From positions 1 through 55,643 of IMG/VR virus record IMGVR_UViG_3300032331_001807: 55,643 nucleotides of DNA. One strand, given 5' to 3'. Every line of letters begins with the position of its first letter. The stretch's first letter is position 1. A program made the position numbers and the translations under genes. The notes under the pieces were generated by a model. That model saw only the letters and a list, made by a program, of their open reading frames with translations. It had not been told where the DNA came from and did no database searches. Shown here one piece after another: positions 11,780-54,489 of the stretch. The DNA is from a virus. Lineage: Duplodnaviria; Caudoviricetes.

Positions 11780-14098
11780 TTACGCTCGCAGACGGGCCGC
11801 GAACAACGTGTTCCGAGCATCTTCGCGGTTGTTGAGCACCGCACGCTCTATCGCACGGTAGGTGCCCACCAGCAGCACCTTCTTCTTGGCGCGGGTGATG
11901 GCCGTGTAGAAGAGGTTGCGCTGGAGTTGGTGAGAGAAGCTCTCCACCAAGGGCATCACCACCACGTCGTACTCAAGCCCTTGGCAGCGGTGGACCGTCA
12001 CGGCGTAGGCCAGACGGAGAAGTTTGCCAGCCTCGGAGAACGGGATGGAGACCATCACCACGGGCGGGCCGTGGATCTTGATCTGGATGATCTTGGCCTT
12101 CTTGTCGATCCGATTGACCTTGGCCACGTCGCCGTTGAACACTCCGAGCTTGTAGTCGTTCTTGCTGACGATCACCCGGTCGCCTTCACGGAGCACCTCA
12201 CCGTCCACGGTCATCTCGGGGAGCCCGTGCTGGGCGGGGTTGAGGATCGCCCGGAGACGAGTGTTGAGATTGGTGACACCGAGGGTGCCAGCGTGCCGGG
12301 GGGAGAGAACTTGGAAGTTTTCCCGCTGCGTGTACAGCTTCTCGGACAGCTTCAGCACGAGCTTCAGCACCTCCTCCTCGTCAGCCAGCGGGAACAGACG
12401 GAAGTCCGACTGAAGGGGGGCTTCGGGCACGCGCCCGTGGTAGATGTCGTGCGCCGCCGTCACGATGGGTGAGGTATCTGCTTGGCGGAAAATCTCCGTG
12501 AGGGCCACGGTCGGGAACCGCCCCGATGCGAGGAGGTCGCGGAGTACGTTGCCCGCGCCCACCGAGGGTAGCTGCGCGGCGTCTCCGACGAACACCAGTC
12601 GGCAGTCCGGGCTGGTACACGTCAGCACCCGGTAGAGAAGTGCTTGGTCCACCATGCTCGACTCGTCGATGACCACCACTTCGGCGGTGTGAGGGTACTT
12701 GGGTCCGAACCCCCACTCCTCGCCAGAGCCGTCCGACACGGGGGCGTCCCCACGCTCACCTACCACCCCCGCGTAGGTTGACTCACGCCCGTCCTCGACG
12801 GTGATGCCCCGGGCCTCAAACGCCCGGTGGATGGTGCTGGCAGTGACCCCGGTGACGGAGGCGACCCGCTTCGCCGCGATGCCCGTCGGAGCCACGACCA
12901 ACGGAACAATCCCCGCCTCGTGGAGCAGGGTGAGGGCCATGCGGAGGGAGGTCGTTTTGCCCGAGCCCGGGAGGCCCGTGATGATGGACACGGACTCGGT
13001 GAGGGCGTTGAGCACCGCCTCCGTCTGCATGGGGGAGAGGGCGATGCCGAGGTTCGATCCCACCTTGGAGAGGTACTGGACCCCGGCCTCGCGGAGAGTG
13101 ACCCCCGGCACCTCCTCGCCAAGGAGAGACTTCGCGTACTGGGCGGCACGGTCGGGAGGGATGGCAGCGGTGGTGACTCGCTCCAACAGGATGCGAGAGG
13201 ACTCGCACTCCGTCTCGTAGGCCCACGGGTCGTAGATGGCCGTGAGCCCCGGCTGCGTGCGGTCCACCACCACCCGGTCCTCCTCGATGAGAGCCTTGAG
13301 GCCCACGGCGATGTCCCGGTCGGTCATGAGCGGGTCGAGGGGACGCACCGCCCCGAGGAGTTCTCCCGACGACAGGTACAGGTGCCCCATCCCCTTGCTG
13401 GACTTGGCCGCATGGAGCACCGCCCCCTTCACCCGGTTGATGTTCGACGGGGAGCAGTCCAGCCCGAGGCGCTGGGCCACGGTGTCGCAGTCCGAGAACG
13501 TCACCCCGTCAATCTCCAGCAGCGACCACGGGTTGGTGGAGAGAACGTCGCGGGCTTCGTCCCCGAACTGACTCCAGACTTGGCGCACCTTCCCCTGCGG
13601 GAGCCCGAGGTCACCCAAGAAGTCCAGCGTGCGGAACAAAGCCGTGGCCGTGCGCCACTTGTGGACGACGAGCTCCGCGATGAACGTGGTCATCCCCGGG
13701 ACCGCCTTGATCTGCTCCGGGTCCAAGAGGGCGGCGGGCATGTCGCCCTTGAAAGCCTCACGGAGCTTGGCCGCGATGGAACTGCCGATGCCCTGCGACA
13801 CCAGAACCTTCTCGCACGTCACCTCGTCCCACCCGGACTTCAGCACCGGGGCACGGGTGATCTTGAGTTGCCGCCCGTACTTGGGGTGGTCGTCCCAGAC
13901 ACCCTCCCACCCGAACCACGTCCCGACGGCGATCTTCACGCCGGGGATGTCCCCCCGCACGGTGACGATGGACTCGTCCTGCACGGACTCGGCGTCGAGG
14001 GTCATGCGGAGGACGTAGAAGGCTTTGGCCTCGTTTGAGAAGTTGATCGTGTGGACGCGACCCGAAAAATAGGTCGCGGAAGGCTTGGTCGGAGGCAT
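11780..14098 (-). CDS. recD2: RecD2-like SF1B helicase
   Basis: N-terminal HPKYGRQ OB/HhH region, GLPGSGKTT, APTGIAA, TIHR, IDESSMVD, VGDAAQLPSV, YAVTVHRCQGLEY, YTAITRAK. Confidence 0.92.
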   Translation of the reverse strand: MPPTKPSATYFSGRVHTINFSNEAKAFYVLRMTLDAESVQDESIVTVRGDIPGVKIAVGTWFGWEGVWDDHPKYGRQLKITRAPVLKSGWDEVTCEKVLVSQGIGSSIAAKLREAFKGDMPAALLDPEQIKAVPGMTTFIAELVVHKWRTATALFRTLDFLGDLGLPQGKVRQVWSQFGDEARDVLSTNPWSLLEIDGVTFSDCDTVAQRLGLDCSPSNINRVKGAVLHAAKSSKGMGHLYLSSGELLGAVRPLDPLMTDRDIAVGLKALIEEDRVVVDRTQPGLTAIYDPWAYETECESSRILLERVTTAAIPPDRAAQYAKSLLGEEVPGVTLREAGVQYLSKVGSNLGIALSPMQTEAVLNALTESVSIITGLPGSGKTTSLRMALTLLHEAGIVPLVVAPTGIAAKRVASVTGVTASTIHRAFEARGITVEDGRESTYAGVVGERGDAPVSDGSGEEWGFGPKYPHTAEVVVIDESSMVDQALLYRVLTCTSPDCRLVFVGDAAQLPSVGAGNVLRDLLASGRFPTVALTEIFRQADTSPIVTAAHDIYHGRVPEAPLQSDFRLFPLADEEEVLKLVLKLSEKLYTQRENFQVLSPRHAGTLGVTNLNTRLRAILNPAQHGLPEMTVDGEVLREGDRVIVSKNDYKLGVFNGDVAKVNRIDKKAKIIQIKIHGPPVVMVSIPFSEAGKLLRLAYAVTVHRCQGLEYDVVVMPLVESFSHQLQRNLFYTAITRAKKKVLLVGTYRAIERAVLNNREDARNTLFAARLRA

Positions 14099-23991: not shown

Positions 23992-24079
23992 GTAGGTCAA
24001 TCCTCGATGGGGCTGTGACACCGAGCCCGCCGTCACCGGGGGCACACGAGAGCGAGGGTATAAGCCCGCTACCGAGGTC

Positions 24080-24958: not shown

Positions 24959-25132
24959 ATGAAGGTCTGGATCGTGACGGCGGGTTGGAACCGCGAAGAG
25001 ACGTGGATTCTCGGCGTGTTCGCCACGGAGCAGGGTGCCCAAGCGTTCGTGGGAACCCTCCCCGTGGACGGACGTGGCATGTTCGACGGATACGACTTCG
25101 TGCGGGTCCATGCCTACGACGTGACGCTGTGA
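24959..25132 (+). CDS. small hypothetical protein (57 aa)
   Basis: MKVWIVTAGWNREETWILGVFATEQGA...; below the ORF-track cutoff, read manually. Confidence 0.7.
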   Translation: MKVWIVTAGWNREETWILGVFATEQGAQAFVGTLPVDGRGMFDGYDFVRVHAYDVTL

Positions 25133-25317
25133 ACAACCCCAAGCCCAAGCCCAAGCCCAAGCCCGACAACCTCCCCCGCGTGTATCGCGGCGGGTCGTGG
25201 TTCAGCACGTCCGCCACCCTCGTGCGCGCGGCTTCTCGCTACGACTTCACGTCGTCGATCCGTCACTACATCTTCGGGTTTCGCTGTGTGCTGCGGGGAA
25301 GGGAACCCCGAGTATGA
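25129..25317 (+). CDS. stand-alone FGE/CLec C-terminal variable segment, cassette A
   Basis: RVYRGGSWF...VRAASR...FGFRC; GTG overlaps the upstream TGA. Confidence 0.8.
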   Translation: MNNPKPKPKPKPDNLPRVYRGGSWFSTSATLVRAASRYDFTSSIRHYIFGFRCVLRGREPRV

Positions 25318-25484
25318 GCCCGATCAAAACCCCGCGTGCCATCCGTGGCACCAGTTGGGCCTATCGCGACCCCGGCGAGGACCGCGCCGAGATTCGCGTC
25401 TGTAACGGCATTGAGGATCGCCTACCCGTCGTGGGCTTCCGTTGCTCGCTGCGGGCAAGGGCACCCGTAGAGGCTGATCCGTGA
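25314..25484 (+). CDS. stand-alone FGE/CLec C-terminal segment, cassette B
   Basis: RAIRGTSWAY...RAEIR...VGFRC; ATGA coupling. Confidence 0.75.
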   Translation: MSPIKTPRAIRGTSWAYRDPGEDRAEIRVCNGIEDRLPVVGFRCSLRARAPVEADP

Positions 25485-25663
25485 GCAATCCCGCCTCCCT
25501 CCGTAACGGAGGTTGGGCCGAGGAGGAGCCCGAGACCTTTCGGGCGGCTCACCGTCGCCAAGGCGTGCGCGCCTACCGATGCTGGGGAGCACCCTCGTAC
25601 CGTGACGACGAGACCGGGTTCCGCACCGTGCTGACGGCGGCACGGCAACCCGTCCGGGCGTAA
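25481..25663 (+). CDS. stand-alone FGE/CLec C-terminal segment, cassette C
   Basis: LRNGGW...VRAYR...TGFRT; GTGA coupling. Confidence 0.65.
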   Translation: MSNPASLRNGGWAEEEPETFRAAHRRQGVRAYRCWGAPSYRDDETGFRTVLTAARQPVRA

Positions 25664-49592: not shown

Positions 49593-50375
49593 TTACGCCC
49601 GGGACAGAGCCCGTTGGAGCTTCCCCATCGCGTCGGCCTCGACTTGTTGAACGCGCTGACGGGTGACCCCCCACTCGTCGGCCATTTCTTGGAGCGTCGG
49701 GACGGTGTCCCCCTCACCGACGAGATCAGGTAGCACCCGGCGCGTCACGATCTCCCGCTCCCTTGGGCGCAGCTTCCCAAGGGCCTTCCCCACCGCCCGC
49801 TCGATATCGCCCGCGCGCATCTGGTCTTCGATGTCCTGCAACAGCCTCGGGTCTTCCACCGTCTAGTGCCGTGGGATCTTCGCACCCGGGGAGTCCACCC
49901 CCTCACGGTGGTCCCATGTCTCGTCAAGGGAGTCCTCGGGGTGAAGGTACATGGAGGCCGCGACGAAGCAGTCCCAATCCGTGGGGTGCGCCCAGTGGCG
50001 GTTCTCCCGCAGGAAGATCCGCACCGTGCTTGCCTCGCAACTGCCCCCTTCCCGAAGGTGCCGCCGCAACCCGCGACTCAGCCCACGCTGGTTCCGTGTG
50101 CCCGTCATCCCCACCCGGCGGTAGAAATGCACCACCCCCGACAGGTGGTTGCGAATGAGCCGCCCCGCCCAAGTGCTGAAGGCGTACCCCCGGTCGGGGT
50201 CGAAGGTGCGGGCAGCGGCACAGAGCGCCGTCAACGCTTCCTGTTCGATGTCCGACCGCTCAAGGTGGAGGCAGGTGAACCCCCGGGAGATGTCCACCGC
50301 CAAGCCGTAGTGCCGCACGGGGTCCTCCCGGTACGGCCCAAGGCGCGACACGTCCCGGTAGGCGTACTCAGTCAT
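49593..50375 (-). CDS. sigma-70-family factor interrupted by one in-frame TAG (49863-49865)
   Basis: Region 2 DIEQEALTALCAAARTFDPDRGYAFSTWA lies before the stop; region 4 LRPREREIV...TLQEMADEWGVTRQRVQQVE lies after it in the same frame. Confidence 0.8.
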
Positions 50376-50595
50376 TGATGAACCCGCACCACGGTTCAAA
50401 CAGGGGTGCGGGGAGCGGGAGCCCCAATGCTTCGTGCAGGACCATGCCGCTGTCGGCGGCGTTGGTACCACACGCAGTGCAGGGGGTCAGCCCCACGTCC
50501 CCCTCGCCACACGCGGCGCAGGGGAGGCGCTCACCCGCGAGGATGCGGGCGGTGTCGTGGGCGCGGCCAGCGATGACGATGTCTTCAAGAGTCAT
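50368..50595 (-). CDS. small zinc-ribbon protein
   Basis: CAAC...CTAC; ATG 7 nt after a class-1 CGTGG box. Confidence 0.65.
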   Translation of the reverse strand: MTLEDIVIAGRAHDTARILAGERLPCAACGEGDVGLTPCTACGTNAADSGMVLHEALGLPLPAPLFEPWCGFIND

Positions 50596-53324: not shown

Positions 53325-54149
53325 ATGAAGATCCAAGTCTGCATCGTCGAGGGACCCAAGGGGGTCTGGCTCGACTACGAGCCCTCCACACCCCTCCCCA
53401 ACACGGATCATCCCGACGAGGTCGCCGGGGTGGTCAACACCATCCGCCTGCCCGAGGGTGTCACCGCCCTGCGGGTACTCACGGCGACGGAGGTGTGGAG
53501 CTTCCACTACCACCCCTCCTACGGGTGCGTCCCGCGCCTCCGCATCGAGGCGGGTGAGGTGGTGATGGAATGGCCGACGAACGCCGAGGTGGGCGGCGTC
53601 TGGACGGTCCACCACGTCCTGCCCGACGGGAACCTCCTGCCCCATTGCTACGTCGAGGGAGCCACGTCCTTCATGATGGGCGACGACGAGAGCCAGACCC
53701 GTCGCAAGGTCGTCGTCGAGGCGGGCTTCATGGCCTTCACCCCGACGACCGTGAGGCAGTGGAACTGGTACGCCACGGACATGGGCAAGGAGCTCAAGCC
53801 CACCACCGTCACGGACAAGTCGGGCGCGACGGTGGACCTGAGCGACCACCCGGTGGTGGAAGTCTCCTACTGGGAATCGTGCGAGTTCGCCAAGTGGGCG
53901 GGCGTCGGCCTCCCCACGGAGGAGGAGTGGGAGCGCGCCGCGCGCGGCAACGACGGGCGCAAGTTTCCGTGGGGCAACGACGCCCCCAAGGATGAGCTCT
54001 GCTGGTCGAGCATTCACTCCCAGAAGGAGCGCACCGCGCCGTGCTTCAACCCGGACGGCACCCCCGCCCGCCCCAAGGGTGCCTCCCCCTACGGGCTGCT
54101 CGACATGAGCGGCAACGTCTGGGAGTGGACCAGCACCGTCCACAAGTGA
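53325..54149 (+). CDS. FGE-sulfatase (SUMF1)/C-type-lectin-fold protein lacking its C-terminal segment
   Basis: FMMGDD, HPVVEVSYWES, LPTEEEWERAARG, FPWGN, SPYGLLDMSGNVWEW, then a stop 6 codons later. Confidence 0.9.
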   Translation: MKIQVCIVEGPKGVWLDYEPSTPLPNTDHPDEVAGVVNTIRLPEGVTALRVLTATEVWSFHYHPSYGCVPRLRIEAGEVVMEWPTNAEVGGVWTVHHVLPDGNLLPHCYVEGATSFMMGDDESQTRRKVVVEAGFMAFTPTTVRQWNWYATDMGKELKPTTVTDKSGATVDLSDHPVVEVSYWESCEFAKWAGVGLPTEEEWERAARGNDGRKFPWGNDAPKDELCWSSIHSQKERTAPCFNPDGTPARPKGASPYGLLDMSGNVWEWTSTVHK

Positions 54150-54319
54150 GACGGGCACAGCCCCCGGACCCCAACCTCCCCCGCGTACTGGTGGGAGGAG
54201 GTTGGGAACTCTCCTACGCCCCGTTCATGCGGCCCGCCGACCGGGGCTCGTACGAGCCCGAGTGGCGCGAGACCGACATTTTTCGCACCCACCTCGCAGG
54301 AAGGGAACCCCGAGTATGA
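54146..54319 (+). CDS. stand-alone FGE/CLec C-terminal segment, cassette D
   Basis: NLPRVLVGGGW...MRPADR...IFRT; GTG overlaps the FGE stop. Confidence 0.75.
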   Translation: MRRAQPPDPNLPRVLVGGGWELSYAPFMRPADRGSYEPEWRETDIFRTHLAGREPRV

Positions 54320-54489
54320 AGCCCCCTACCAAGCCCACCGACACCCGCCTCCGCATCCTCCGCGGCGGCTGTTGGTACAACTATGGACCGTCGAGGGTGC
54401 GCGCGGCGTATCGCAACGCGAACGTGCCTGCGCTCCGAAACTTCCACATCGGGTTTCGGTGCGCGCTGCGGGGTAGGGAACCCCGGTGA
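54316..54489 (+). CDS. stand-alone FGE/CLec C-terminal segment, cassette E
   Basis: RILRGGCWYN...VRAAYR...IGFRC; ATGA coupling. Confidence 0.8.
   Translation: MKPPTKPTDTRLRILRGGCWYNYGPSRVRAAYRNANVPALRNFHIGFRCALRGREPR

Follow-up and report, generated by a model that had tools for sequence, protein, structure and literature searches.

The IMG/VR virus record IMGVR_UViG_3300032331_001807, a stretch of 55,643 nt of Caudoviricetes DNA that we analyzed whole and refer to as the window, raises the question of why a phage should carry arrays of very short genes that resemble the variable region (VR) of a diversity-generating retroelement (DGR) and little else. The original prediction for this DNA, made from its letters alone, described the segment at 25129-25663 as a remote array of three orphan VR cassettes and as present or former targets of a DGR. 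The comparisons below indicate that two of the five cassettes in the window, A and E, are DGR VRs reduced to minigenes, with a template and reverse transcriptase (RT) that would lie outside the phage. For the reading as a whole, in which the phage minigenes are VRs that are matched by bacterial templates, are diversified in trans, and complete a split body gene, we think the balance of the evidence is favorable, though well short of certainty. As to place, the segment that was named does hold three plus-strand cassettes, but these are A, B, and C; cassettes D and E, which had been drawn into the same comparison, sit 29 kb away, directly behind the body gene. The features concerned are the following.

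25129-25317, + strand: cassette A, a minigene of 62 amino acids (aa), a PK-rich linker followed by the C-terminal segment of the FGE/C-type lectin (CLec) fold
25185-25286, + strand: variable-region core of A, homologous to template repeat TR_A on contig C291 of metagenome-assembled genome (MAG) G206
25297-25317, + strand: 21-nt end common to A and D, in which a Shine-Dalgarno (SD)-like GGAAGGGA is followed, after a spacer, by the ATGA where the stop of A and the start of B overlap
25314-25484, + strand: cassette B, a diverged paralog of 56 aa (family hidden Markov model (HMM), E 5e-17) that fits no template found
25481-25663, + strand: cassette C, a diverged paralog of 60 aa and of the GFRT type (family HMM, E 5e-14) that fits no template found
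53325-54149, + strand: body gene, 274 aa, an N-terminal part and an FGE-sulfatase domain cut off after GNVWEWTSTVHK
54146-54319, + strand: cassette D, a minigene of 57 aa whose start overlaps the body-gene stop (GTGA)
54316-54489, + strand: cassette E, a minigene of 57 aa and of the canonical GFRCALRGREP type, with a Pfam FGE-sulfatase match
54349-54466, + strand: variable-region core of E, homologous to template repeat TR_E on contig C74 of MAG G035

The evidence that carries this reading comes from bacterial genomes. A search of GTDB with one genome per species led from a 27-nt framework motif to G035 and from a motif of cassette A to G206, two delta-proteobacterial MAGs of the same order that each contain a classical DGR with RT and template repeat; among the GTDB representatives searched, both templates are unique to these two. 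On contig C74 of G035 (2,470 nt), a non-coding template repeat accompanies an RT gene (RVT_1; motifs LGNLTSQ and YMDD), and an unsplit FGE target lies on the other strand. Contig C291 of G206 carries an RT, the second template (TR_A), and, upstream of the RT, a 124-aa open reading frame (ORF) that is avd-like by size and place only.

Over 111 nt, cassette A differs from TR_A at 6 of 84 non-adenine positions and at 17 of 27 adenines, which places 74% of the mismatches at template adenines (Fisher 1e-8), and inside 25185-25286 there are 3 non-adenine mismatches (25233, 25252, and 25256) versus 17 at adenines. The cassette is as close to this template as the two VRs of G206 itself, which show 4/84 and 5/84 non-adenine mismatches along with 14/27 and 19/27 at adenines, respectively. 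Cassette E differs from TR_E at 6 of 85 non-adenine and 13 of 26 adenine positions (68% at adenines; Fisher 4e-6), or 6 of 88 and 13 of 26 when 114 nt are compared. Its non-adenine mismatches fall at 54355, 54384, 54394, 54405, 54410, and 54438, and the E core aligns by blastn with G035:C74:1163-1280 at 84% identity (E 3.7e-28). Two cassettes of relatives, one in the phage record G002 and one in L111, match TR_E over the same 114 nt at every one of the 88 non-adenine positions while differing at 11 and 18 of the 26 adenines. When 97 phage cassettes are compared with the G035 template, 12 have at most two non-adenine mismatches, and in 23 adenines account for 75% or more of the mismatches. Cassettes B, C, and D fit neither template, with 28-36 mismatches in 80-85 non-adenine positions (for B, 35/83 to TR_A and 30/85 to TR_E; for C, 33/83 and 35/85). 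The claim that these cassettes are DGR targets reduced to the VR was thus sound for A and E, whose mismatches are concentrated at template adenines, and is not borne out for B, C, and D; within 25129-25663, only one cassette of the three, A, carries the DGR footprint. The accompanying judgment that E is not the template of A was correct, as the template matched by A is not the one matched by E.

All of the bacterial targets seen for the matching templates are unsplit. A second target of the G035 template is a 571-aa protein with caspase and FGE domains that lies beside a CHAT-TPR protein on a 14-kb contig, C407, where the CHAT-TPR protein, 1,000 aa in length, and the caspase (Peptidase_C14) and FGE target occupy L155:4568-7567 and 12287-13999. 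This neighborhood has the architecture of the conflict systems whose sensors are described as diversified by DGRs (PMC10907252).

The cassettes themselves, of which 52 canonical ones make up our footprint set, bear a codon pattern that is specific to each column. Eight hypervariable codons are NNC, each ending in C in 46-52 of 48-52 sequences, and the remaining variable codons have the skeletons G-N-N, N-C-G, G-N-G, and N-G-T. Aspartate and never glutamate occurs at NNC columns, glutamate and never aspartate at G-N-G and G-N-A columns, and of the 411 residues at NNC positions 2 are K, E, Q, M, or W, which have a combined background share of 16.8%. It had been suggested that high GC content at third codon positions (GC3) explains NNC usage in part. 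With 48% of third bases being C in the long genes of the window, a background of this kind exists, but the excess at NNC positions stays above it: 82 of 89 codons from four-fold families end in C there, compared with 43.5 expected from the window's genes. Four-fold codons keep a fixed third base in 162 of 176 cases at hypervariable columns versus 826 of 990 in the framework. Furthermore, paralog pairs show 0-2 differences at 92 framework positions, yet 10-18 at 28 variable positions, and the four-fold sites of the body genes, for the same genome pairs and span, are only 58-75% identical. The template deduced from these columns, RGGSW-NNN-E-PSWVRAASR-N-T-N-E-PA-N-R-NNN-I-GFRC, is encoded exactly by the non-coding repeat of G035:C74, and the prediction is therefore found in full in a real DGR. 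For the window, the observations with which the work began were accurate: the alignment of A with E is free of gaps over 89 nt (25222-25310 and 54397-54485; 74% identity), and at the eight positions where the templates identified subsequently have AAC, each cassette reads NNC in 8 of 8. The corresponding counts for the other cassettes are 5/8 (B), 6/8 (C), and 5/8 (D).

Profile comparisons clarify what such a minigene may contribute. Against the Pfam FGE-sulfatase profile PF03781 (255 positions; curated cut-off 23.3 bits), the body gene matches positions 15-193 (E 6e-31, 108.5 bits), cassette A positions 207-254 (E 2.2e-5, 24.7 bits), and cassette E positions 206-254 (E 6.6e-7, 29.7 bits), all over the cut-off, and B, C, and D have no Pfam match at E<=1. 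By this measure, the body gene holds only the first three quarters of an FGE-sulfatase/CLec domain, and A and E its missing C-terminal quarter. Projected onto PDB chain 6muj_A, the body profile covers residues 142-244 and the cassette profile residues 264-307, and the latter also matches the DGR protein TvpA (2y3c_A) at residues 252-293 of 294, its C-terminal variable part. What a minigene encodes is only the last ~45 residues of this fold, the part that contains the variable ligand-binding residues in DGR proteins. A binding role for the phage domain is our assumption, by analogy with TvpA as far as it is treated in PMC5758913.

The truncation point is identical in all six bodies compared, directly after a WEW motif, so the split is not an accident of the window record. 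These bodies come from the window, from three IMG/VR relatives (87%, 75%, and 48% protein identity), and from two metagenome contigs; five end in WEWTSTVH(K), and the body of relative G003 ends in WEWCDSLYYR. Each of the virus records (the window, G001, G002, and G003) has exactly one copy of the body gene. Cassette D, which follows it, is conserved and not hypervariable, with 94-97% nucleotide identity among the copies in the window, G001, and G002. A programmed -1 frameshift that would join the body to D was considered and dropped, as G003 and L110 lack a D-type cassette at this place and the junction codon switches between GTG (window and G001) and ATG (G002), which identifies it as a start codon and not a frameshift site. 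A natural fusion of the two parts exists in G003 (L003:5680-6714), where a cassette without a stop codon reads into the body ORF from its N-terminal side, in effect a circular permutation of the domain; an AlphaFold model of this fusion was too poor to read (mean pLDDT 43.5, pTM 0.41). A comparison with PHROGs added nothing on function.

The cassettes had been described as orphans, but they are not stray remnants; they are members of a conserved family whose minigenes are intact, are coupled in translation, and would complete a split gene. In the four virus records, which together span 593 kb, the cassette profile finds 5 copies in the window, 16 in G001, 25 in G002, and 12 in G003, and none of these 58 matches contains an internal stop. 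The related phage contigs together carry about a hundred cassettes, metagenome contigs have arrays of up to 12 in about 3 kb (in the loci scanned, as distinct from whole records), and a large protein collection includes 18 called proteins of 56-72 aa that belong to the family. All five start codons in the window overlap the preceding stop as ATGA or GTGA, as do most starts among the relatives' listed cassettes. In the canonical set, framework codons vary at third positions and not at positions 1-2, a pattern that marks selection on a translated product. At the level of sequence, these data establish that A, B, and C are intact minigenes and that their multi-copy family is specific to a single clade of large phages. 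A phage-type cassette pair with 65% GC, short ORFs, and a KPTTKP linker also occurs on RGPS01000530.1 (1349 nt; L146/L156), assigned to a Terriglobia MAG, although the contig probably comes from this phage clade and was mis-binned.

Coupling also bears on the sequences shared by A and D. As originally noticed, the 14-nt AACCTCCCCCGCGT is exact at 25168-25181 and 54173-54186, and the 21-nt end, GGAAGGGAACCCCGAGTATGA, occurs in exactly two copies (25297-25317; 54299-54319), compared with an expectation of 0 from shuffled sequence. The suggestion that this end serves as the initiation of mutagenic homing (IMH) sequence does not stand so simply, because it lies mostly beyond the template homology, which stops near 25286, and holds GGAAGGGA and the ATGA of the next minigene. 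Wherever a cassette follows a canonical one, its start is preceded by the SD-like GGAAGGGA, and the presence of this motif and of the next start explains much of the conserved 21-nt end. In the stretch after GFRC, the candidate place for an IMH and for its template counterpart, IMH*, host VRs and phage cassettes alike read GCGCGC(GC/TG)CGGGG and the template reads GCGCGCGCGAGG.

We propose that a DGR outside the phage genome, most likely that of the host, would make complementary DNA (cDNA) from such a template, and that this cDNA would be copied in trans into the phage cassettes. Copying of this kind, whether past or present, would rewrite the adenine-templated codons and reset the framework. 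The minigene product may then complete the truncated body non-covalently, allowing one scaffold gene to present many binding surfaces, a step proposed because the domain halves are complementary and their genes coupled. We infer diversification in trans by a host DGR from template identity down to synonymous sites in phages that are otherwise diverged, which points to repeated transfer of sequence from a bacterial system into phage and suggests a phage that makes use of the mutator of its host. The simplest route for such transfer is retrohoming in trans, with gene conversion from host VRs as the main alternative; in the experiments that PMC3240598 covers, retrohoming works between replicons, from a DGR donor on one to a phage or plasmid that serves as recipient. 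In the lineage of the window, A and E would be older, currently quiet targets, since A is unchanged in the contigs of other samples and both have few non-adenine changes, and B, C, and D may be paralogs that left the system or never belonged to it. A bolder version holds that the arrays are live substrates of a host chromosomal DGR whose cDNA retrohomes across replicons, and that their products are perhaps effector-less mimics of host immune sensors, an idea prompted by the diversification of caspase/CHAT-linked sensor proteins from the same templates in the bacterium. We offer this version tentatively and think it somewhat more apt to fail than to hold.

Several observations weigh against the proposal. 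A and E each have 6 non-adenine mismatches, which means that neither was recently rewritten from exactly these templates. The two templates sit in two different MAGs, and the contigs that carry them with the RT are short (2.4 kb), so that the binning could be wrong. G035 contains no CRISPR-spacer-like match to the window; one 33-nt match has 91% identity. In Logan contigs from three other runs, which belong to two studies that are possibly one campaign and which, as assembled contigs, reflect the consensus and drop rare variants, the 135 nt of cassette A at 25174-25308 have 1 differing letter, compared with 5 in 429 nt of the upstream gene; at the consensus level, cassette A thus shows no diversification from one of those samples to another. 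For A and E, a stem of the form CGGGG-N7-CCCCG is predicted after the VR, but it folds no better than shuffled sequences (z -0.05 and -0.49). Finally, CheckV rates G002 at 59% and the window at 13% completeness, which leaves room for a phage RT in unsampled DNA. The same Logan contigs break at a (CCCAAG)4 repeat at window 25138-25164, which encodes the PKPKPKPK linker of cassette A; a cassette of one relative has a longer PK run.

That last point leads to the alternative that the phage has an RT, Avd, and template of its own in a part of the genome that was not sampled, with the cassettes as ordinary remote targets. Phage DGRs are common, CheckV completeness is as low for the window as just stated and is 39% and 24% for G001 and G003, and the same search does detect an RT in another viral record, G005 (E 4.7e-22). 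On the other hand, three methods found no RT in the 593 kb of the four related records. The RVT_1 profile gave 0/4, the cognate RT protein as query gave 0/4 while both MAG controls matched, and an hmmscan of 161 ORFs of G002 (at least 160 aa) returned no RT; the Avd family PF05635 was likewise found in 0/4. All 58 cassette-like stretches in these records are VR-like, the adenine-richest having adenine at 16 of 30 variable positions. A cassette acting as template for another, including E for A, was rejected as well, as none of 186 pairs at 80% identity or above has mismatches confined to the adenines of one partner. The statement that the window holds no RT or template repeat is therefore borne out there and in three relatives, and the RT and templates that were to be sought in the rest of the genome turned up in bacterial MAGs instead. 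Furthermore, the window is colinear with G002 (window 21373-54485) and runs across its two contig ends, with window 50.8-51.5 kb corresponding to G002 4.1-3.4 kb, window 53.4-54.5 kb to G002 264.6-263.6 kb, and 1.9 kb between them; because the window bridges these ends, G002 (265,895 nt) is probably a complete, closed, circularly permuted genome despite its CheckV value. Exact stretches of 36 and 38 nt from the two templates are absent from 2.9 million IMG/VR contigs, and the RT/template contigs have 71-72% GC, compared with 65-68% for the phages, and carry unsplit targets, one beside CHAT-TPR/caspase domains. As a weak control, the RVT_1 profile exceeded its cut-off in 1 of 30 other FGE-bearing viral records (G005), from which it appears that most phage FGE domains are not DGR-linked. 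A DGR of the phage's own thus seems unlikely to us.

Recombination or gene conversion with the host's diversified VR genes, by which the phage would copy host VR alleles without retrohoming into phage DNA, strikes us as unlikely to a similar degree. The phage encodes RecA, a RecD2-like helicase, and RuvC-like and PD-(D/E)XK nucleases, three G002 cassettes form a mosaic in which some variable patches are common and others different, and this process would likewise hold frameworks identical to the template. Yet no phage cassette repeats a host VR allele, of which only three or four are known, phage-specific flanks are kept, and the cassettes retain the GC-rich CGGGG end typical of targets, which in the template reads CGAGG; keeping this end is a requirement of retrohoming but not of recombination. 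The poor fit of B, C, and D to any template raises the further thought that the cassettes, or at least B and C, are decaying, functionless relics of former targets. Their GC3 (0.70-0.75 for B, C, and D) is below that of A and E (0.81-0.83) and of the body (0.93), they lack the Pfam match, and among the cassettes listed for relatives none was noticed that closely resembles B or C, a point not tested separately. Nevertheless, open frames, start codons, and stop/start overlaps are kept in all cassettes, D is conserved across three genomes with its GTG/ATG start as described above, and contigs from other samples carry parts of B and C with almost no change; decay is in our estimation improbable, somewhat more so than either route just discussed. 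Ordinary duplication with diversifying selection on binding residues in a high-GC3 genome would need no DGR at all, and some of the pattern suits it, as high GC3 favors NNC and framework residues (R, G, W, V, A, P, F, and C) need no adenine in GC-rich codons, making an adenine-free framework partly trivial. It is already contradicted, however, by the column-specific skeletons with their fixed third bases, by the contrast between framework and variable positions in paralog pairs, and by real templates with adenine at exactly those positions, and we give it almost no credence.

The remaining content of the window is that of a large phage. The record, 65% GC, also includes a ribonucleotide reductase, a chaperonin, a SET domain, and sigma-factor pieces, and neither cassette locus has a DNA match in the INPHARED phage collection. 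One neighboring gene is coupled to cassette A, and the same gene end is found 5' of the syntenic cassette arrays in G001 and G002.

24959-25132, + strand: DUF7336 gene, 57 aa (Pfam PF24024, E 4.7e-8), whose stop, TGA, and the GTG at which cassette A starts overlap as GTGA

Sigma-70 regions 2 and 4 lie in two adjoining ORFs at window 49596-50471 on the minus strand and in a single 260-aa ORF in G002. An intergenic element of ~53 nt, consisting of CGATTCTYGGTTAC, about 12 nt, TCTCCGTGG, and then GCATGAC at the start codon, occurs in the window at 24078, 51930, 52801, 54489, 54983, 55037, and 55591. At six of these seven sites (those read) it is directly 5' of a plus-strand start codon, it is also present in G001 and G003, the only two returned by a contig search with its motif, and it is probably a clade-specific promoter or leader. 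G002 (L134-L136 and L140) further encodes a Tet/JBP oxygenase and an amino acid:DNA transferase (DNA hypermodification), two TnpB (OrfB_IS605), inteins in its ribonucleotide reductase, ThyX, and SNF2 helicase, a Volactin homolog, and a bactofilin-domain protein.

DGRs are understood as self-contained systems in which the RT, template, and full-length targets reside in one genome. The minigenes depart from that view in that the VR has been separated from the rest of its fold and exists in many copies, the large phages that carry them yielded no RT, and they match bacterial DGR templates down to synonymous sites. If the link to a host is true, hypermutation machinery would be shared or hijacked across the phage-host boundary, and it would be of the same DGR kind as that proposed to diversify bacterial antigen sensors. 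If the arrays are live substrates, a phage without an RT would gain a modular hypervariable binder with one scaffold and dozens of exchangeable tips. Such genes may also fall into a blind spot of surveys. The smallest DGR targets mentioned in the relevant part of Wu et al. 2018 (PMC5758913) have 44 aa, but the global survey, as its clustering is described in Roux et al. 2021 (PMC8144416), clustered only targets >300 nt, a limit that would drop genes of ~170 nt such as the cassettes.

Our findings can be set beside several known systems, although stand-alone arrays of VR minigenes, a split CLec target, or phage targets matched by bacterial templates are not described in the literature we surveyed, supplementary target lists aside. 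The remote trans targets of Thiohalocapsa PB-PSB1, in the account that Dore et al. 2024 (PMC10907252) give of them, rest on the same criterion with the same outcome, a VR that matches a distant template at all non-adenine sites, and the bacterial target seen here, with caspase and FGE beside CHAT-TPR, is of the conflict-system sensor type treated there. In Thiohalocapsa, however, template and targets share one bacterial genome, whereas here the targets are in phages and the templates in bacterial MAGs. The hairpin that follows the VR in DGRs, with a GC stem of 7-10 bp and a GRNA loop, is not clearly present in the phage cassettes. Cyanobacterial paralogs such as all3226 of Anabaena PCC 7120, for which PMC7517822 in the portion concerned notes remnant homology between template and VR and no RT nearby, provide a model for the quiet cassettes, but they are full-length bacterial genes in a bacterial genome and not minigenes in a phage. 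In Bordetella phage BPP-1, the tropism switching of Mtd likewise rewrites a phage gene segment at template adenines, and its donor and recipient may sit on different replicons, a recipient phage included, in what PMC3240598 relates of them; BPP-1 nonetheless has its own avd, template, and RT beside one full-length target, none of which was found in the present phage records.

The closest likeness is to DGR proteins of the CLec1 class, such as TvpA of Treponema denticola (PDB 2Y3C), which have the same fold, the same place for the VR, and the same AAC-rich template logic. The FGE-sulfatase type of C-type lectin is the largest category of DGR targets in the classification for which we cite Wu et al. 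2018 (PMC5758913). Unlike CLec1 targets, the phage fold is cut in two, and its variable part takes the form of genes of ~57 aa in arrays, with many of them for each single scaffold gene.
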